Positions 5,965-64,000 of a stretch of DNA of 64,000 nt are shown in pieces. The notes below the pieces were generated by a model that ran no database searches, was not told the DNA's origin, and worked only from the letters and a program-made list of their open reading frames with translations. Numbering within the stretch: position 1 is the first letter of the stretch; each line of letters begins with the position of its first letter. Both the position numbers and the translations under genes were made by a program. Source of the DNA: an uncultured Candidatus Saccharibacteria bacterium (GTDB taxonomy: Bacteria > Patescibacteriota > Minisyncoccia > Phycocordibacterales > UBA9973); assembly GCA_964591445.1 (NCBI GenBank), contig CAZQAW010000002.1, positions 3,394 through 67,393 on the forward strand. Reading direction: 5' to 3'.

Positions 5965-6673
5965 AACAACTTTCATACTTCTCTTTGCGATCTTCGCCTT
6001 CGCACCACATAAAAGCGAAGCTGCCGTACTTGGCTTGGGCGCAAATTTCTGCGACCGACTTCCTGGCATCGAACAGAAAATCCTAGTGCAAGTAGAAGAC
6101 TTCCAGACAAAACGTGAAGCAAACAAGCCGGCGCTTTCTATCAAACTTGAAGAAGCATGGACTGCAGACAAAGAAGAGCTTGCGGCAGAGCGACTTGCTG
6201 CAGACGAACGCCGAGAAGCGCAGATGGAAGCTCTCTTGGCAAAAGCAACAACAGATGCCGAGAAAAAAGCGGTGACAACTTTCAAAATAAAAGTAGACAA
6301 AGCAGTCAAAGATTTGCGCGCAGCTATAGACAAAGCAACTCTCTCCTACCAAACTGCGGTGAAAGCCCTTCGTGATGAACGCTTGGCTGGGCTCGATGAA
6401 AGCATCGCGGCTTACAAAGTGCACATCCAAACTTCTTTTGCAGTGATGAAAGAATCCTGCGTAAACACAAAGCCAACAGAAAAAACTATCCGTGCAGAAA
6501 TCGAAATGATCCGCGAGGGCTTGAGAAAAAACCAAGAACTTTTTGACAGCAAGATCGACGGCATCGACGCTATCGCCGAAGTGCGAGCAGACTCAAATGC
6601 AAAAGCCGAAGCAACGTATACAAAAGAAATGAAGTCTGCAGAAACAGCGCTCCGCAAAGTATTGAAGCAATAA
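5948..6673 (+). CDS. Secreted coiled-coil protein (signal peptide MKNFTKTTFILLFAIFAFAPHKSEA). Third gene of the sigma operon.
   Basis: Signal peptide at the internal ATG. Overlaps the preceding gene by 17 nt. Ala/Glu/Lys-rich heptad-like sequence. Confidence 0.45.
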   Translation: MKNFTKTTFILLFAIFAFAPHKSEAAVLGLGANFCDRLPGIEQKILVQVEDFQTKREANKPALSIKLEEAWTADKEELAAERLAADERREAQMEALLAKATTDAEKKAVTTFKIKVDKAVKDLRAAIDKATLSYQTAVKALRDERLAGLDESIAAYKVHIQTSFAVMKESCVNTKPTEKTIRAEIEMIREGLRKNQELFDSKIDGIDAIAEVRADSNAKAEATYTKEMKSAETALRKVLKQ

Positions 6674-12085: not shown

Positions 12086-12146
12086 AAAGGCCATCGGCAT
12101 GAAGCGTAATGAAAATTAAGCTCTATACCGATGGCCTTTTTTCTTT
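12086..12146. terminator. Long hairpin AAAGGCCATCGG...CCGATGGCCTTTTTTC (12-bp stem, ~30-nt loop) with a T-tract on the plus strand.
   Basis: It lies immediately 3' of the holA stop on the minus strand. In plus orientation it could also terminate a transcript from the 280-nt non-coding region upstream. Confidence 0.5.
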
Positions 12147-15826: not shown

Positions 15827-16294
15827 TTAAGAGATCTCAATCTCGCGAATAGATTCTTCTTTGTGAGACAAGTTTACCTTGATTGCATCAGACGGAATGA
15901 GTCCTGGAACCTGTTCTGGCCATTCGATCAGAATAAGATTTTTTGGATCAGACATGATTTCTTGCCAGCCGAGTTTTTCTAATTCTGTTTTGGAGCTTAA
16001 GCGGTATGCATCTATATGGATGAGTTTTGTGAATTGCCCCCTCTCCTGGCTAGGAGAGGGTTGGGGTGAGGTTGGTGGAAGATTATAGAACTTCATAATT
16101 ACAAACGTTGGTGAGACGAGATGTTCTTTTACGCCAAGCTCTCGCGCGATTGCTTGCGTGAACGTTGTCTTCCCTGCGCCAAGGTCTCCGGAAAGTGCAA
16201 CAACAGCCGCGCCGGTAAACCGGCGCGGCTTCACTGCTTCCAGCACTTCTTCCGCAACAGATTGTATTTCAGGTAGCTCAAAACTTCGTTTCAT
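15827..16294 (-). CDS. tsaE: tRNA threonylcarbamoyladenosine biosynthesis ATPase TsaE (YjeE), carrying an in-frame insertion of about 14 aa.
   Basis: P-loop GDLGAGKTTF, SPTF and HIDAYRL motifs. Between SPTF and HIDAYRL lies NLPPTSPQPSPSQERGQ, which is encoded by the palindromic repeat at 16027-16065. Confidence 0.8.
   Translation of the reverse strand: MKRSFELPEIQSVAEEVLEAVKPRRFTGAAVVALSGDLGAGKTTFTQAIARELGVKEHLVSPTFVIMKFYNLPPTSPQPSPSQERGQFTKLIHIDAYRLSSKTELEKLGWQEIMSDPKNLILIEWPEQVPGLIPSDAIKVNLSHKEESIREIEIS
16027..16065. repeat. GC-rich palindrome element, copy b: CCCCCTCTCCTGGCTAGGAGAGGG TTGGGGTGAGGTTGG, inserted in frame in tsaE.
   Basis: Same inner palindrome and GGGGTGAGG module as at 8470-8530 and 43757-43870. 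It translates as PTSPQPSPSQERGQ on the minus strand. Confidence 0.6.
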
Positions 16295-16314
16295 GCGGAG
16301 ACTTTAGCATAAAG

Positions 16315-16428
16315 AAAAGAAAGAAACTAGTTGGAAAAGCCTTGCGGAGGCTGTCGAGCCGAGCAGGCTACATTTTCAGCAGAAAATGATAGCTTGCTTT
16401 TCCAGCTAGTTTCTTTCTTTTCCGACAC
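16315..16428 (+). ncRNA. Candidate structured RNA or repeat element, copy 1. The conserved ~50-nt core CCTTGCGGAGGCTGTCGAGCCGAGCAGGCTACATTTTCAGCAGAAAAT sits inside a 24-bp flanking stem.
   Basis: The core is shared with 36935-36985 and, in reverse complement, with 63229-63284. The flanking arms AAGAAAGAAACTAGTTGGAAAAGC / GCTTTTCCAGCTAGTTTCTTTCTT pair with a single U-G wobble, which holds only in the plus-strand RNA. An intrinsic terminator follows at 16434-16457. Confidence 0.45.
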
Positions 16429-19292: not shown

Positions 19293-19334
19293 GACTGTAC
19301 ATTTTTAAATCTTCGATACAAGTGCATCAAAAAC

Positions 19335-19372
19335 TTGAAAATGTACAGGGTAGCGAATGTGTTGCTACCCTG
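19335..19372. terminator. Hairpin TACAGGGTAGC-GAATGTGTT-GCTACCCTGTA 3' of the minus-strand gene 19397..20845.
   Basis: 11-bp perfect stem followed by a T-rich run on the minus strand. Confidence 0.45.
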
Positions 19373-36440: not shown

Positions 36441-36905
36441 ATGAACAGAAGCGATATAGAAAAAAGCATACACGACCTTTTCCGGGCAACGAATCTCACT
36501 ATCGACGAAGTGGTGGTGAAAGATGATGAAGACACAGGCATGGTATGGTTTTCTATTCGTACGAGCGAGCCGGAACTTTTTATCGGCCGAAATGGTGAAA
36601 CACTTCAAGCTTGGAACCATATCGTTCGCAAAATGATCGAGAAACAACTTACCAGAGCGGAAACCTTTACTGAAATCTTGATCGATGTAAACGACTATCA
36701 AAAGAAAAAAGTAGACAGTTTGAAAACAATAGCTCATATGATGGCTGAACGCGCACGATTCTTCAAATCAAGCGTCGATGTCGAGCCGATGTCCCCTTAT
36801 GAAAGAAAGATTATTCACTCATATCTTGCAAATAAAAACGATGTGACAACAGAGTCTGCGGGCGAAGGACGAGACAGGCATGTGGTGATCAAATACGTTG
36901 GTTAG
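36441..36905 (+). CDS. jag: Jag/KhpB-like RNA-binding protein (KH plus R3H domains).
   Basis: The C-terminal ERKIIHSYLANKNDVTTESAGEGRDRHVVIK is an R3H motif. Typical gene order after yidC. Confidence 0.8.
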   Translation: MNRSDIEKSIHDLFRATNLTIDEVVVKDDEDTGMVWFSIRTSEPELFIGRNGETLQAWNHIVRKMIEKQLTRAETFTEILIDVNDYQKKKVDSLKTIAHMMAERARFFKSSVDVEPMSPYERKIIHSYLANKNDVTTESAGEGRDRHVVIKYVG

Positions 36906-37019
36906 CCGCACAAAAGAAAAAGCATTCCGGAGACCTTGCGCAGGCTGTCGAGCCGAGCAGAGCAAATTTTCAGCAGAAAATTATGTCGTGTCTCCGGAAT
37001 GCTTTTTCTTTTGTGCGGC
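36905..37019 (+). ncRNA. Candidate structured RNA or repeat element, copy 2. The conserved core sits inside a perfect 30-bp stem that exactly fills the spacer between convergent jag and the gene at 37023.
   Basis: Core ACCTTGCGCAGGCTGTCGAGCCGAGCAGAGCAAATTTTCAGCAGAAAAT. Arms GCCGCACAAAAGAAAAAGCATTCCGGAGAC / GTCTCCGGAATGCTTTTTCTTTTGTGCGGC. Confidence 0.45.
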
Positions 37020-37022
37020 TTG

Positions 37023-43756: not shown

Positions 43757-43870
43757 GGTGTGTATTCCTCCTCTCCTAGCCAGGAGAGGACTACGGCTTG
43801 CCGAGTGGTGAGGTTGTTTGTTCCTGAACTCAACCTCACCCCGAACCTTCGGTCGACCCTCTCCTAGCCA
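43757..43870. repeat. GC-rich nested-palindrome element, copy c (composite): CCTCTCCTAGCCAGGAGAGG ... GTGGTGAGG ... CCTCACCCC GAACCTTCGGTCGA CCCTCTCCTAGCCAGGAGAGGG.
   Basis: Contains the same outer (CCTCACCCC/GGTGAGG), linker (CCGnACnTTCGnTC) and inner palindrome modules as copy a. Lies in the intergenic region between the virB4 N-domain gene and the prgI-like gene. Confidence 0.6.
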
Positions 43871-43879
43871 GGAGAGGGT

Positions 43880-48098: not shown

Positions 48099-48196
48099 CG
48101 TGGACAGAATACAACTTTAGTATATCATTTACTCCTTAAGAAAATACGAAAAAACAGTGCAAAACTTTTGTTTTGCACTGTTTTTCTTTGTTTTAT

Positions 48197-50470
48197 TTAG
48201 TAGACACCCAAGTTGCTTTCAAGTATTGGTACACCAAATGCGCTGTTGATGTTGATGACATCGGTAACGTGAATTTCGGCGTAGGCTCCGTTTGGCAATC
48301 CCCCTCCGTAGAACACGTCATCCAAGAATACACTGGTTGTTGGTATAAGTGACGCTGCCTGTTCTTGGACAGAAAGCAAGTCTTTTGGATACGATTTGCG
48401 TTGTGTTGGTCCGGTGTATGTGGTGCCGACGTTTGAGCCAGTCTTGTCGATACCGTCCACTTCTTTGCGGCAGCGGTAAAAGAGGTCTACTGCGTCTCGT
48501 GTGTCAAACTCTATCTGGTATATCTCAGCTTCCAAGTTCTTTACATCGTCTCCTGTTACCAAATTTGAGGTCATGGCTTGGAATGTGCGCACCAGTTTTT
48601 CGTATTCGGTATTGTTAGGGTCAGTTTGGTACGCGGCAAGGGCCTGTGGAAGTTGGCTGTTGATGTAGGTAAGCTTGCTGATATTTGATTTCATCTGCCC
48701 GATCTGCGCTTCGATTTCGGTGTATTCGTTCTGATAAGTCGGAAGTGAATTGTATAACTGGTTGATCTCTGCTGTTACTGTCGGCATGTTGAATACATTG
48801 AACTTATCCTTCATGATATCGATAAAGCCTTTGAGTTTGACCGGCGGATCATTCTCGCTCATGCCGCCTTCGATGATACGTTGGACGAGAGATATGGTTC
48901 GTTCTTTTGACATTGCGCTGTTTGTATCAACACCGGTGTATGCTCGGAACAAAACAGTAAAGAATGAAGCGATACCACTTGCTTTTTGTATTTCTGTCAA
49001 AGCCGTTGCTTCGTTTTGGTATACCGTATCTTGCCAGTTTGCGGCTGGGCCGGGCAAGCAGAAGTCTGCTTTGTAAATTGCCGGAAGCATCTGGTTGATC
49101 GCGCCAGTTTTTGTAAGCTTGTTTGCCCCATACGTATTCCCCGGTCCAAGACGATCCAAGTAATCTTGCTGGTCTTGTATAATTCCCGGAAGTCCAGTGT
49201 TGATATCAAACTCATTTGCTGGATGGTTCCAATGTGTTTGTGATACACCAGACCCTCCGTTTGAAGATGATCCTGTGTTGCTGCCTGAACCTCCGTTGTA
49301 TTGATAAGGATTTGTGCCAGAGCTTGAAGTATCTGCAAGCGAGCTCAAACCTTTTTGCATCATCTGGTTCAAAAGCGCGTCAAATATTGCCGTAAGCGAT
49401 GCATCCAAATCTTCACTGTTGATCAAAGAGTCTGTAGGAATATCGAGCGCGGTGTTGAGCTGATGTGAAAGCACTCCACCCGGTGTGCGAGTTTCTTCAT
49501 AAGTACAAGTATATTTACGCAAACGTTCTTTTGCCGCATTAATGTCTGCTTGATTATAAGATGCTCCATCAAATGGTTCATAACTTCCGGTATTGTTAGA
49601 AGCCTCGGGTGTGGGGAGGCCTGCAATAATCATGTCCTCGCTCTTGTCCCAGTCTGCCGGTGGTTCTTCGTAGTCGCTTGGCTCTACACATACTTTCAAA
49701 GAAAGAAATCCAAAGTTGTTTTGAAGATCTGTTTTTATTTCCTGTATCCTGTTTTGTCCATAACCGGCAATTCGACGAGAAAATTCGTCGCCGGTAATGA
49801 TAGTTGCGCCGATCTGGTTGTTCTGCGGAAGTTGGGTCATTGCAAGCCATCCGTCCCAACCCCCGACGGCAAAGTCGGCTTGGAATTGTTGTGCTTGCGC
49901 CGAACCAATAACTTTGTCTAAACTATATTGCGCGTACATGGAAAAATTTGCTTGAAGTGAGGCAATCAAGTTGCGTGCAATATCTTTACCGAAAGGAGAA
50001 ACGATCTGTATTTGCGCCGTCAAACTCATGAGTTCTTCGTCAGCGATACTTTTGAAAAATCTACCGGGGTTCTGTACGAATGCTGGGGAACCTTTGAATC
50101 CAGTGTTAATCCAGTTCACTGTCGCTTGAGTGATCTTTCGGAGCAATGTTTGTGCGGCAGCACGAGCAATTTTTTTCAAACAAGTTTCTTTGTTTTCAAG
50201 TGCTTTGGTCGCTGGGTCGTTGGTGTCTACTGCCCCACTTGTCAAACCTTCAAGCTTGCTTGACCCCAAGTTAAGAAGTTTGTTCAATCCGCATCCGATA
50301 CCAGCGCCAAGTATTGGGCCTGCACCTTGGAAGATGCTTGCTCCGCCGGAGAACTGCGCTTCAACCTTGCTTACTTCAATGATGAACAAGCCTTGTCCAA
50401 GTACTCCGACAAAAACGATGACTGAAAGTATTTTTTGTAGCCAGGACTTCATACGTTTGTAGTATATCAC
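48197..50470 (-). CDS. Large membrane-anchored extracytoplasmic protein (757 aa), function unknown.
   Basis: N-terminal TM (ILSVIVFVGVLGQGLFII) with the remainder predicted to be extracytoplasmic. Overlaps the next gene by 4 nt. Confidence 0.4.
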   Translation of the reverse strand: MIYYKRMKSWLQKILSVIVFVGVLGQGLFIIEVSKVEAQFSGGASIFQGAGPILGAGIGCGLNKLLNLGSSKLEGLTSGAVDTNDPATKALENKETCLKKIARAAAQTLLRKITQATVNWINTGFKGSPAFVQNPGRFFKSIADEELMSLTAQIQIVSPFGKDIARNLIASLQANFSMYAQYSLDKVIGSAQAQQFQADFAVGGWDGWLAMTQLPQNNQIGATIITGDEFSRRIAGYGQNRIQEIKTDLQNNFGFLSLKVCVEPSDYEEPPADWDKSEDMIIAGLPTPEASNNTGSYEPFDGASYNQADINAAKERLRKYTCTYEETRTPGGVLSHQLNTALDIPTDSLINSEDLDASLTAIFDALLNQMMQKGLSSLADTSSSGTNPYQYNGGSGSNTGSSSNGGSGVSQTHWNHPANEFDINTGLPGIIQDQQDYLDRLGPGNTYGANKLTKTGAINQMLPAIYKADFCLPGPAANWQDTVYQNEATALTEIQKASGIASFFTVLFRAYTGVDTNSAMSKERTISLVQRIIEGGMSENDPPVKLKGFIDIMKDKFNVFNMPTVTAEINQLYNSLPTYQNEYTEIEAQIGQMKSNISKLTYINSQLPQALAAYQTDPNNTEYEKLVRTFQAMTSNLVTGDDVKNLEAEIYQIEFDTRDAVDLFYRCRKEVDGIDKTGSNVGTTYTGPTQRKSYPKDLLSVQEQAASLIPTTSVFLDDVFYGGGLPNGAYAEIHVTDVININSAFGVPILESNLGVY

Positions 50471-62012: not shown

Positions 62013-63170
62013 GTGAATTTACAACCCTCACAAGACTCTCCTGGTCCCGAACGATTAGCATCGGTTGGTCCAAAGACGAAAAAAGCCTTATTTTACAAGG
62101 GTACATATGCCCAAGCTTCTTTTTTGTTGCTTGCGACTTTTGCCCTCGTTTTCCCTCCGATGGTCTCTCAGGCTAGTCTTTTCTCATATATTGTGGGAGA
62201 AAAAGCAGATGCGGCTGACCAAGCTATAGTAAAAAATGCTCCTAACTCCCAAACTATCGCTCTTTTGGAAGCAAGCCCTCGCATTGACCCTCTTTCGACA
62301 GAGTCAAATGACACTACTATATATAACAGCTCGGCCCTTGCTCCGGAAACTGGCCCGCTTGGTACGGTTGCCGATGTGGCGCTCGCTCCCGAGACAGATC
62401 AGATCAGCCTTTACGTCGTAAAATCTGGCGACACTATTTCTTCTATTGCCAAAATGTTCGGCGTGAGTACAAGTACGATCCGCTGGGCGAACGACCTTGC
62501 TTCCGGACAAAGTGTTGCTGAAGGCGCTGTTCTCACTATCCTCCCTATTTCCGGCGTTGAACATACCATTACCAAAAACGACACTTTGAAGAAAATCGCC
62601 GCACGATATGGCGCAGATATGGATGACGTTGCGTCTTTCAATGGTATTACCGAAGACACCGTGCTTGAAATCGGTTCGACTATTATTGTGCCAGACGGCG
62701 AAGTTGCTCCGGTAGAAACCAAGACAGTGAAACCGACTAAAACTGCCGACACAAAGGCCAAGAAACTTGCGACTGCAAAAGTGTTGCAAGCGAATTTGCC
62801 TACAGTTGAAGGCTTCATCCGGCCGATCATCGGTGGACGCAAGTCTCAAGGTTTGCACGACAGATACGCCATCGACTTGGCTGCGCCGATCGGAACTCCG
62901 ATCATGGCTTCAGCTGGAGGAACTGTGCTTCTTGCAAAAATGGGTTACAACGGCGGCTATGGAAACTATGTTGTTGTTAAACACGACAATGGAACACAAA
63001 CTTTGTACGCGCACATGAGCAAGATCGGCACAACTGCCGGCGCGACTGTACAACAAGGCGAAGTGATCGGCTACGTAGGTTCAACAGGACGTTCAACTGG
63101 TCCGCACGTCCATTTCGAAGTTCGAGGTGCTAAAAATCCTGGAGTTACTCCTGGAGTTTGGGAAAGATAA
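62013..63170 (+). CDS. LysM-domain peptidoglycan M23 metallo-endopeptidase.
   Basis: Two LysM repeats (YVVKSGDTISSIAKMFGVSTSTIRWAN; ITKNDTLKKIAARYGADMDDVASFNG) and an M23 core (HDRYAIDLAAPIGTPI...VVVKHDNGTQTLYAHM...GSTGRSTGPHVHFEV). Confidence 0.85.
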   Translation: MNLQPSQDSPGPERLASVGPKTKKALFYKGTYAQASFLLLATFALVFPPMVSQASLFSYIVGEKADAADQAIVKNAPNSQTIALLEASPRIDPLSTESNDTTIYNSSALAPETGPLGTVADVALAPETDQISLYVVKSGDTISSIAKMFGVSTSTIRWANDLASGQSVAEGAVLTILPISGVEHTITKNDTLKKIAARYGADMDDVASFNGITEDTVLEIGSTIIVPDGEVAPVETKTVKPTKTADTKAKKLATAKVLQANLPTVEGFIRPIIGGRKSQGLHDRYAIDLAAPIGTPIMASAGGTVLLAKMGYNGGYGNYVVVKHDNGTQTLYAHMSKIGTTAGATVQQGEVIGYVGSTGRSTGPHVHFEVRGAKNPGVTPGVWER

Positions 63171-63194
63171 AAAAGCGCAGTGATGCGCTTTTTT
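63169..63194. terminator. Bidirectional terminator AAAAAAGCGCA-GTGA-TGCGCTTTTTT.
   Basis: Hairpin with flanking A and T tracts after the M23 peptidase gene. Confidence 0.6.
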
Positions 63195-63198
63195 AATA

Positions 63199-63313
63199 CC
63201 AAAACAATAAAACAAACATTCTGAAAGCAAGCTATAATTTTCTGCTGAAAATTTAGCCTGCTCGGCTCGACAGCCTCCGCAAGGCTTTCATAATATTTGT
63301 TTTATTGTTTTGG
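63199..63313 (-). ncRNA. Candidate structured RNA or repeat element, copy 3, in minus orientation. The core sits inside a ~30-bp stem whose outer arm overlaps the last four codons of the comM-like gene.
   Basis: Reverse complement of 63229-63284: AAGCCTTGCGGAGGCTGTCGAGCCGAGCAGGCTAAATTTTCAGCAGAAAATTATAGC. Arms CCAAAACAATAAAACAAACATTCTGAAAGC / GCTTTCATAATATTTGTTTTATTGTTTTGG have two mismatches, one of which is a G-U wobble only on the minus-strand RNA. Confidence 0.45.
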
Positions 63314-64000
63314 TCGATATTGCAACGCTTCCAAAACATGCTGTGTGGTTACATTTTCGCTTTCTGCCAAGTCTGCAATGGTGCGCGCGAGTTTGATGAC
63401 TCGGTGGTATGCTCGCGCAGACAGCCCGAGTTTTTCGGCTGTCGTATTTAAAAGTTTTTTCGTTTCTTCGGAGAGCGGAACATAACTTGCGAGGTCTCGT
63501 GTATTCATCTCTGTATTTGTGGTGATGCTACGCGGATGATTTTTAAATCTTTTTCTCTGTATTGCTCTTGCGCGTTCGACGCGTTTTTTTATTTCAGCAC
63601 TTCCTTCGCCTTCTCGTGTCGTAGTGCTCAACTTTTCATAATCCACTTCGCCGACGTGCGTCCAAATATCGACGCGGTCCATGATCGGCCCGGAAATTTT
63701 TCTTTGGTATCGCGCAATATCATTTTGTCGACAGACGCATTCTTTGTGAAGCGCGCCGCGGTTGCCGCATGGACACGGGTTCATCGCTGCGACCAAAATA
63801 AATCTTGATGGAAAAACGACCGAACCTTTGGCGCGAGAAACAGTGACCACTTTGTCTTCCAAAGGTTGTCGCAAACTTTCAATCACACGTTTTTCAAATT
63901 CTGGAAATTCATCGAGAAACAAAACTCCATGATGTGCGAGCGTGACTTCGCCAGGTTTTGGAAAGGTGCCACCGCCAATCATCGAAACGTACGATGCGGT
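63302..64000 (-). CDS. YifB/ComM-family Mg-chelatase-like AAA+ ATPase. Partial: the N-terminus lies beyond the window end.
   Basis: HHGVLFLDEFPEF (Walker B/sensor), RFILVAAMNPCPCG, and a C-terminal Mg_chelatase_C-like region (ARAYHRVIKLARTIADLAE). Confidence 0.8.
   Translation of the reverse strand, partial: TASYVSMIGGGTFPKPGEVTLAHHGVLFLDEFPEFEKRVIESLRQPLEDKVVTVSRAKGSVVFPSRFILVAAMNPCPCGNRGALHKECVCRQNDIARYQRKISGPIMDRVDIWTHVGEVDYEKLSTTTREGEGSAEIKKRVERARAIQRKRFKNHPRSITTNTEMNTRDLASYVPLSEETKKLLNTTAEKLGLSARAYHRVIKLARTIADLAESENVTTQHVLEALQYRPKQ

Follow-up and report, generated by a model that had tools for sequence, protein, structure and literature searches.

Rickettsia palindromic elements (RPE) are short, hairpin-forming sequences present in many copies, found both between genes and in frame within unrelated housekeeping genes, where they are read through, and no transposase has been identified for them (PMC10969869). 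Other small non-autonomous repeats, namely ERIC/IRU, Correia/NEMIS, BOX, RUP and similar elements resembling miniature inverted-repeat transposable elements (MITE), are imperfect palindromes occurring in transcribed intergenic DNA in both orientations (PMC10969869). The present analysis concerns a hairpin element in the genome of an uncultured Candidatus Saccharibacteria bacterium, within a stretch of 64,000 nucleotides (assembly GCA_964591445.1, contig CAZQAW010000002.1, positions 3,394 to 67,393 of the forward strand) that is referred to here as the window. Three copies of the element occur in the window, numbered from left to right, and the third overlaps the end of a yifB/comM-like gene (Table 1). 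Taking all the evidence into account, copy 3 is best read, with a probability of roughly 0.6, as a member of a dispersed family of structured palindromic elements found in Patescibacteria (the candidate phyla radiation, or CPR) which behaves like the RPE.

A structured hairpin family of the Patescibacteria

An inverted-repeat scan placed the arms of copy 3 at 63198-63228 and 63284-63314, each 31 nt long and 94% complementary to the other, with 55 nt between them. The outermost 18 bp are paired without mismatch (CCAAAACAATAAAACAAA / TTTGTTTTATTGTTTTGG), while the 13-bp inner stem contains one A.G mismatch and one G.U pair. A first-pass annotation, made from the sequence and a list of its open reading frames (ORFs), had described a stem of 12-15 bp, a figure that has to be revised to 31 bp, with only the outer 18 bp specific to the copy. 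Its reading of one arm as the codons P K Q * of the minus-strand yifB/comM-like gene agrees with the ORF at 63302..63982, which ends in ...Y R P K Q *, with CCA AAA CAA TAA lying within the right-hand arm (63302-63313). Upon folding, the minus strand of copy 3 reached -52.5 kcal/mol (z = -9.7, with none of 200 shuffles as good), as against -44.5 kcal/mol for the plus strand.

Every genuine match to the element shares one layout, with a long stem (P1), a three-way junction and two further elements, P2 and P3. Family-wide, P2 is built from a helix UUGC/GCAG, an internal loop that is conserved (GCA/GA for most members, GGA/GA for copy 3) and a further helix of 4 bp capped by a GWCG loop. P3 comprises a short helix at its base, followed by a bulged A and a hairpin of 7-8 bp whose loop reads ANNA. 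Across 61 members, 93.8% of the cells assigned to pairs are indeed paired, compared with 71.3% in shuffles, none of 500 of which reached the observed value, and 32-46% in slid controls. Double changes were seen in 21 of the 25 pairs, with compensatory changes at all ten pairs of P3; the 61-member alignment was fitted to the model, and an alignment made with MAFFT only yields the same P3 signal. The P2b helix, invariant among members selected by an 18-mer of the head (see below), has the variants GGCU/AGCC, GGCC/GGCC, GCAC/GUGC, GGAC/GUCC, GCGC/GCGC and GCUC/GAGC in other members. Many CPR lineages share about 26 near-invariant nucleotides in the head. Owing to G.U pairs, folding favours the sense strand in 42 of 48 copies, with a mean advantage of 6 kcal/mol, and likewise in all three window copies. 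This is thus a structured nucleic-acid family in which all helices covary in a strand-specific manner, and selection appears to act on the fold of one strand, either as a transcript or as single-stranded DNA, rather than on an encoded peptide.

The 18-mer core of the head, GGCTGTCGAGCCGAGCAG, was found at 106 loci in species-representative genomes, about 28 of which carry the full element. All 28 lie in metagenome-assembled genomes of Patescibacteria, namely Nomurabacteria, Paceibacterota, Parcubacteria RAAC4_OD1_1 and, going by record title, 'Saccharibacteria'. A longer head pattern matched 35 metagenome contigs; the viral contigs searched with it gave no match, so that a phage origin is unsupported. 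A covariance model built from 25 members, from which the probable chimera L043 was left out, added copies lacking the exact 18-mer, among them six within 8 kb of L052 and four in L025, and detected two copies each in L003, L051, L110, L117, L121, L133 and L137. In total, 61 distinct copies, with hairpins of 100-130 nt, were collected from 316 kb of CPR DNA. Copies are scattered at roughly one per 20 kb, a density equal to that of the window. Intergenic copies comprise 8 in convergent, 6 in co-directional sense, 7 in co-directional antisense and 3 in divergent arrangement. In the collections searched, the dispersed family is restricted to Patescibacteria.

Some members and their contigs show peculiarities of their own. 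Two L052 copies (1852-1993 and 5974-6115) have the 12-nt P2b hairpin replaced by a 48-nt A/U-rich hairpin (GAGCUUAGAAAAUAAAAGGGG...) with the rest intact, which represents either a nested insertion or an expansion segment. L043 (3601-3720) and L142 (4048-4152) have the 5' flank and 5' arm in common, with L043 having a different P3 and a 3' arm that does not pair; L043 is likely to be a chimeric contig whose parts meet at the repeated head. Many matches also stand at contig ends (L082, L123, L135, L140, L115, L126, L132), which together with L043 suggests that the element breaks or misjoins metagenome assemblies.

Comparison with described RNA classes gave no counterpart. In Rfam 15, no family came near its gathering score, the window yielding at gathering thresholds three tRNAs only, and in a permissive scan the best results were generic long-hairpin matches, such as plant microRNA precursors, which scored 29 bits where the threshold is 140. 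A self-splicing intron or known ribozyme was rejected, as no Rfam match was found and the 81-nt module is below the size of group I/II introns; SRP RNA, 6S RNA, Y RNA, tRNA-like structures, the K-turn, hammerhead, twister and other ribozyme cores did not fit by eye and had no Rfam support. An intrinsic terminator was likewise rejected, given that a terminator scan leaves the elements unflagged, with their A/U-rich stems of 27-31 bp and no U tract after the stem; separate terminator hairpins lie downstream of copies 1 and 3 on the sense strand. A promoter scan around the three window copies revealed no conserved promoter, a promoter-like match within copy 3 resting on bases specific to that copy. 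No such sequence or CPR repeat was described in the searchable literature, queried by topic and with the literal head sequence.

Table 1. Features of the element copies and their surroundings; positions are those of the window
Feature	Position	Strand	Basis or remark
Copy 3, whole hairpin element	63198..63314	- (sense; same strand as comM-like gene)	Inverted-repeat scan; covariance-model match 90.1 bits, E = 2e-27
Private outer stem of copy 3, 5' arm; overlaps comM-like last codons and stop	63297..63314	-	Ancestral side; RPK C-terminus conserved
Private outer stem of copy 3, 3' arm; perfect complement of gene end	63198..63215	-	Derived side
81-nt family module: 13-bp inner stem and 55-nt three-way-junction head	63216..63296	-	Length equals 27-codon tsaD inserts; alignments
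P2: UUGC/GCAG helix, GGA/GA internal loop, GGCU-GUCG-AGCC	63258..63282	-	Folding; P2a and P2b covary in wider family
P3: GGCUA/UAGCU base helix, bulged A, 7-bp hairpin AAUUUUC-AGCA-GAAAAUU	63230..63257	-	10/10 pairs with compensatory changes, 61 members
Copy 1, 27-bp stem; between tsaE start and upstream gene's terminator, antisense	16314..16422	+	Covariance model, inverted-repeat scan, folding
Copy 2, 31-bp perfect stem	36904..37020	+	Covariance model, inverted-repeat scan, folding
yifB/comM-like AAA+ gene, 3' part, runs off window	63302..64000 (ORF 63302..63982)	-	Pfam Mg_chelatase and Mg_chelatase_C
Bidirectional terminator-like hairpin AAAAAGCGCAGTGATGCGCTTTTTT	63170..63196		Read straight from sequence
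LysM-LysM-M23 peptidase gene, convergent with comM	62013..63170	+	Pfam; adjacency conserved in relatives
tsaD site-1 outer stem, L110			Left arm AATGCCGGATTTAG; right arm CTAAATCCGGCATT
tsaD site-1 outer stem, L145			Left arm ATGCGGGATTTAGCC; right arm GGCTAAATCCCGCAT
tsaD site-1 outer stem, L147			Left arm GATGCCGGGATTTTCCGC; right arm GCGGAAAATCCCGGCATC

The private outer stem and the insertion sites

The inner 12-22 bp of P1 are conserved within subfamilies, as in AAAUAGUCUUUGAGAAAUGC / GCAUUUCGAGAAGAGCUAUUU, which includes an internal loop, or in the inner stem CAGAAAUAAUUUUUUAAAUGC, present in four L052 copies and in L010. Beyond this part, every copy with an intact P1 carries an outer helix of 8-20 bp that is unique to the copy. 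Sixteen copies were folded, and such private outer stems were seen in all the well-preserved ones, including two in a divergent intergenic region; the copy at L025 1673-1771 is degenerate. In the window, the inner stem of copy 1 reads CUAGU.../...AGCUAG against AUAGU.../...AGCUAU in the family, that of copy 2 is UUCCGGAGAC against UUCCAGGAAGC of the L024 type, and the A.G mismatch of copy 3 falls at the position of the family's internal loop, while the outer 14-19 bp of the three copies are mutually unrelated. Copies 1 and 3 have in common a P3-base helix (GGCUA/UAGCU) absent from other members, and their P3 differs by one compensatory pair. Since these close paralogues have unrelated outer stems, the outer stem would have been made locally and not by the slow divergence of the other helices. 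Two intergenic orthologues (L001 and L079) differ, by eye, by four paired substitutions in P1. The script used to delimit stems automatically halts at internal loops and underestimates some of them, and its gene-overlap numbers are thus qualitative.

Given that a private outer stem was found in every member examined, it is a property of the element and not of the comM locus. The view taken in the first-pass annotation, that the stem is not a conserved terminal inverted repeat, is borne out, its outer part being drawn from local sequence and found in that copy only; the further suggestion of a one-off footprint left by an unusual insertion or repair event does not survive the comparison with the other members.

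The comM site allows the two arms to be told apart. In all 120 homologues listed, the protein ends in the conserved ...LEALQYRPK followed by 0-5 variable residues. As RPK is conserved, CCA AAA is ancestral coding sequence and the arm farther from the gene its derived complement, which is in keeping with the earlier description of that arm as an inverted copy of the gene end, the two matching over a perfect 18 nt. The closest protein homologues come from Patescibacteria/Paceibacterota with no more than 71% identity, indicating that the lineage of the window has no close representative in the collections searched. Three relatives (L107, L108 and L109) were compared with the window at the end of comM. 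In L107 and L109, comM is convergent with an orthologue of the LysM-M23 peptidase gene, as in the window (E = 1e-67 for L107), and its stop codon is followed by an ordinary terminator hairpin (17-bp stem in L109) with the element absent; L108 also lacks the element after comM. The element at this site is therefore either a lineage-specific gain or has been lost elsewhere. The giant ORF adjoining the M23 gene showed no similarity to its positional counterpart in L107, so that synteny was judged on the comM/M23 pair only.

An A-rich motif (AATAAAAC / AACAATAAAA) is present just after the comM stop in L108 (5200-5230) and L109 (5163-5180) and also in the window arm at 63297-63314; its recurrence would be a weak sign, given the low complexity of the motif, that the gene-side arm is ancestral 3' untranslated region (UTR). 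In all three relatives, gene calling divides comM/yifB into one ORF for a ChlI N-terminal piece and another for the ATPase part (L107 3225-4753, L109 3600-5161, L108 3600-5197), pointing to a split gene, a frameshift or an artefact of the calling; only the C-terminal part of the gene lies in the window.

Copies inside genes provide the other sites at which flanks can be compared. Long ORFs enclose five of the 61 copies, every one of them in sense orientation and in one common frame (...LAQAVEPSR..(F/I)QQ..). These are found at sites 1 and 2 of tsaD in L110, at site 2 of tsaD in L024 and L114, and in a gene for a TruB-family pseudouridine synthase in L028. The ORFs continue uninterrupted through the element, which is predicted to be read through as peptide; in L110, the tsaD ORF of 430 codons contains two copies, and its Pfam TsaD match is split into three stretches. 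At site 1 the insert is exactly 27 codons (81 nt) in L110, L145 and L147, and with it removed the L110 protein reads RNAGF followed by TKSGID, the same length as KESGL followed by TAKDID in Escherichia coli. An 81-nt insert between flanks of ancestral length implies that the outer stem represents remodelling of the flanks and not extra duplicated DNA. The proposal that the stem arose by inverted duplication of the gene end thus holds insofar as an arm was copied from the gene, but not as an addition of DNA, at least in tsaD, where this can be counted.

Among the tsaD orthologues, a silent change in an Ala codon of the left arm (GCC to GCG) is matched in the right arm by a Gly to Arg replacement (GGC to CGC), and the P2b variants of genic copies encode AVEP, VDAP and RDGA. 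As pairing is maintained even at the cost of amino-acid replacements, the constraint lies on the nucleic-acid fold and not on the peptide. The empty site 1 of L146 (KEAKLYEKKKPVD) is not palindromic. In an alignment of CPR TsaD proteins with that of E. coli, both sites are occupied in some homologues and decayed or empty in others, and both correspond to length-variable segments between conserved blocks. About 92 of the 114 CPR TsaD homologues have a long site 2 (45-55 residues between conserved motifs, compared with 20-30 in the shortest), and at least 35 of the 114 retain the derived peptide motif there.

Further observations were made on the genic copies. All those found so far are in tRNA-modification enzymes (TsaD and the TruB family); this could be a genuine bias or the result of sampling an ancient insertion in tsaD more than once. 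The L114 copy (about 1705-1807) has a 7-bp outer stem, immediately beyond which a direct repeat of 8 bp, GAGCGAGA, flanks the copy; nothing else resembling a target duplication was seen. A search with a profile of the tandem-duplicated element peptide returned two spurious short ORFs only, and a phmmer search with the copy-2 peptide against 1.84 billion representatives gave one false positive, a eukaryote-like repetitive protein. The comM frame is in phase with the frame of all genic copies, and continued beyond its stop it reads P K Q * N K Y Y E S L A E A V E P S R L N F Q Q K I I, so that the TAA in the outer stem is the single barrier to in-frame read-through from comM into the element; such a phase would arise by coincidence one time in three. 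Copy 2 is out of phase with jag.

The window holds exactly three copies, at 85-90 bits when the covariance model is run with no filters, the next match scoring 13.7 bits. Their arms are 55 nt apart in each case and form the longest near-perfect inverted repeats of the window. The stem of copy 1 begins about 20 nt upstream of the start of tsaE and ends 10-15 nt short of a terminator. That of copy 2 begins within the stop codon of a jag/KhpB-like gene and ends 2 nt short of the stop of the gene convergent with it, and that of copy 3 ends 2 nt from the terminator of the M23 gene. The window stems thus end where functional sequence starts. The plus strand carries copies 1 and 2 and the minus strand copy 3, meaning that copy 1 is inverted relative to copy 3 as well. 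By BLAST within the window, copy 1 is closer to copy 3 (97% over 65 nt, 63224-63288; longest identical run 35 nt) than copy 2 is (92% over about 51 nt; longest run 21 nt). Copy 1 lies antisense about 20 nt upstream of tsaE (15827-16294), which encodes a partner of TsaD.

Other repeats and hairpins were noted in the window. A 20-nt palindromic sequence, CCTCTCCTAGCCAGGAGAGG, occurs twice in identical form (43770-43789 and 43858-43877), 68 nt apart, in an intergenic gap within the locus resembling a type IV secretion system (T4SS). A long imperfect hairpin with 34-nt arms, 79% complementary, and a 4-nt loop lies at 48132-48203 between ORFs of 1025 and 757 aa, and further long imperfect hairpins are located at 12086-12139 and 19295-19348.

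Origin of the stem, mobility and alternative explanations

A two-step origin would account for these features. The element would insert as an 81-nt module whose stem continues into the flanks as the private 8-20-bp helix, this outer stem being formed after insertion by copying of one hairpin arm from the other (intrastrand template switching during replication), by selection for a long helix, or by both. At copy 3, the comM side, comprising the last four codons and the 3' UTR, would be constrained, and the opposite flank would have become its complement. Template switching would yield perfect private stems and paired changes in one step, sparing a constrained flank such as the comM end and overwriting the other, and selection would be slower with the same outcome. 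Copy 3 would be transcribed within the comM 3' UTR, ahead of the terminator-like hairpin from which its 3' arm is separated by 2 nt. This hairpin, unflagged by the consensus terminator scan, is common to the M23 peptidase gene and the transcript of comM plus element.

We infer from its distribution that the element is, or was, mobile and non-autonomous, and several points weigh against reading it as a mobile element of the RPE kind. No transposase, reverse transcriptase or mobilising gene was noticed beside the copies, although no systematic search was made, and no consistent target-site duplication was seen in flanks inspected by eye, with none evident at the window copies or at tsaD site 1. 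The head is near-invariant across distant CPR lineages and orthologues keep their pairing (L001/L079 and tsaD in L110/L145/L147), a conservation expected of an RNA functional in the host and not obviously of dead selfish insertions. In addition, the tsaD flanks are part ancestral and part adapted, and stepwise co-evolution fits these at least as well as a template switch.

A serious alternative, compatible with mobility and possible though clearly less probable than the RPE-like reading, is a host-functional cis-acting RNA module, kept by selection on the host and spreading rarely, for example a hairpin bound by a protein or processed by RNase III that punctuates, stabilises or terminates transcripts. 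The covariation of all helices with a strand-specific signal, the 26 or so near-invariant head nucleotides and the in-place compensation in orthologues despite changes in TsaD amino acids would all follow from such a role, as would the position of copies 1 and 3 just upstream of terminator hairpins on the sense strand and the over-representation of convergent over divergent intergenic regions (8 vs 3). Against it, orientation in co-directional regions is random (6 sense and 7 antisense) and copies also occur upstream of genes in divergent regions, there is no conserved promoter, no U tract and no flag from the terminator scan, presence varies among syntenic relatives, and in-frame copies within enzymes are hard to explain as regulation. 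A further reading, in which the hairpin acts in mRNA as a cis module that is recognised, cut or excised, for example by RNase III-type cleavage with ligation or by a novel self-cleaving activity of the invariant head, is regarded as unlikely. Were it true, the long-conserved tsaD and truB copies would be a new bacterial intervening sequence or mRNA control element instead of tolerated selfish DNA, and the private outer stem would bring the 'exon' ends together.

The remaining explanations fare worse. An isolated insertion or repair event beside comM, with inverted duplication of the gene end adding new DNA, would suit the ancestral coding sequence of the comM-facing arm, its perfect 18-nt complement in the other arm and the comM relatives without the element, but is improbable in view of the same architecture in the other members examined, the tsaD insert of exactly 81 nt between flanks of E. 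coli length with no DNA added, and the orthologous outer stems that still change in pairs. It is a little more improbable still that the core was inserted into the loop of a pre-existing hairpin such as a terminator, with both arms ancestral. Relatives do have terminators right after the comM stop, including the 17-bp stem of L109, and the A-rich motif after the stop in L108 and L109 could be taken, weakly given its low complexity, as a trace of such arms; nonetheless, private outer stems also surround coding and divergent-intergenic copies, where no terminator is expected, the empty L146 tsaD site is not palindromic, and the inverted-repeat scan showed that native terminators in the window, unlike the element stems, have G+C-rich cores and arms that do not exceed 17 nt even with their A/T tracts counted. 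As for the surrounding DNA, the first-pass annotation correctly placed copies 2 and 3 in inverted orientation around the T4SS-like locus, and its term 'oriC-proximal' is fair, with dnaN, dnaA, rnpA, yidC and jag directly to the left of copy 2. The 26,177 bp between the copies contain genes for a T4SS pilin and a TraG/VirB4-like P-loop ATPase, ksgA, uvrD, the LysM-M23 peptidase gene and two large ORFs without Pfam hits, and it had been suggested that homologous recombination would invert this block. The orientation of the copies is compatible with this, as is the finding that genes of the block are mostly on the minus strand although located to the right of the dnaA-rnpA region. Such an inversion is nevertheless highly improbable, the two copies being a poor substrate (about 51 nt at 92%, with no identical run above 21 nt). 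Identity of this extent does not exceed the shortest length on which RecA recombines efficiently in E. coli, and may fall short of it. The convergent comM/M23 junction at copy 3 is also conserved in relatives without the element, and since it is ancestral, no inversion breaking at that point has become fixed since those lineages split. GC skew along the window showed no break, though it is too weak and noisy to inform on inversion. Between 37023 and 61895, rightward of the dnaA-rnpA region as far as 62 kb, nearly every gene is encoded on the minus strand, and an origin at about 35 kb would make these genes head-on to replication; this orientation is not explained by inversion between copies 2 and 3, because the order at the comM/M23 end is ancestral.

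Significance and comparison with known systems

If the RPE-like reading is correct, it bears on several matters. Palindromes that colonise genes in frame have so far been held to be a peculiarity of Rickettsia, and an unrelated case in the CPR would show that they recur in reduced genomes. The element may be the source of some of the many insertions in CPR proteins that have so far lacked an explanation, considering that about 80% of the TsaD homologues examined have a long insert at one site, and the pairing kept by amino-acid changes in an essential enzyme would be a case of nucleic-acid structure overriding protein sequence. Extension of the stem into adjoining DNA, including the last codons of comM, would provide a tractable system for studying how hairpins remodel their flanks. 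The repeated 55-nt head also breaks metagenome assemblies and can create chimeric contigs, and should be masked or modelled in CPR annotation.

With regard to the making of the stem, the closest described process is the correction of quasipalindromes through intrastrand template switching, a mutational mechanism of E. coli and phage T4 in which one arm is copied from the other and an imperfect inverted repeat becomes perfect. An equivalent process would explain the perfect private stems and the paired changes without a deleterious intermediate. It is a source of point-mutation hotspots, and we know of no case in which it extends the stems of a repeat family 8-20 bp into the flanks.

Among dispersed repeats, the REP and REPIN sequences resemble the CPR element in being hairpins that are often found at the 3' ends of genes and keep their pairing across copies. 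A REPIN has conserved stems, made of two inverted REPs, with a variable loop and depends on a RAYT transposase, whereas the CPR element shows the reverse, a conserved head and a variable outer stem; no RAYT was seen with it, though no systematic search for transposases was made. Like MITE-like repeats, the CPR element is conserved in sequence across species but varies in location, and it is predicted to form stable RNA hairpins. MITE-like elements end in inverted repeats that are conserved, and as a rule they are bordered by short direct duplications of the target. In the CPR element the outermost paired bases are specific to each copy, with an inner stem of about 12-22 bp conserved within subfamilies; the conserved part is central and no consistent direct repeat was found.

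The strongest likeness is to the RPE. The CPR element is likewise short, hairpin-forming and multi-copy, occurs in a reduced-genome lineage, lies between genes in both orientations and in frame in unrelated genes (tsaD and the TruB family), and varies in presence between relatives. It differs in belonging to another phylum, all its matches being in Patescibacteria, and the likeness is one of kind. Its module of 81 nt is shorter than the RPE of about 150 bp, and it has an asymmetric three-way-junction head, covariation on one strand and a private outer stem drawn from the flanks, which to our knowledge has not been described as an RPE feature. The peptide encoded by the RPE is conserved, whereas that of the CPR element changes as the helices covary (AVEP, VDAP, RDGA). 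As far as the literature is searchable, what is new here is the presence of RPE-like elements in a further phylum, with a stem that extends into the flanks and a fold conserved over protein sequence. The element thus appears to work in the manner of the RPE, and is placed beside them by kind rather than as a member of the RPE family.

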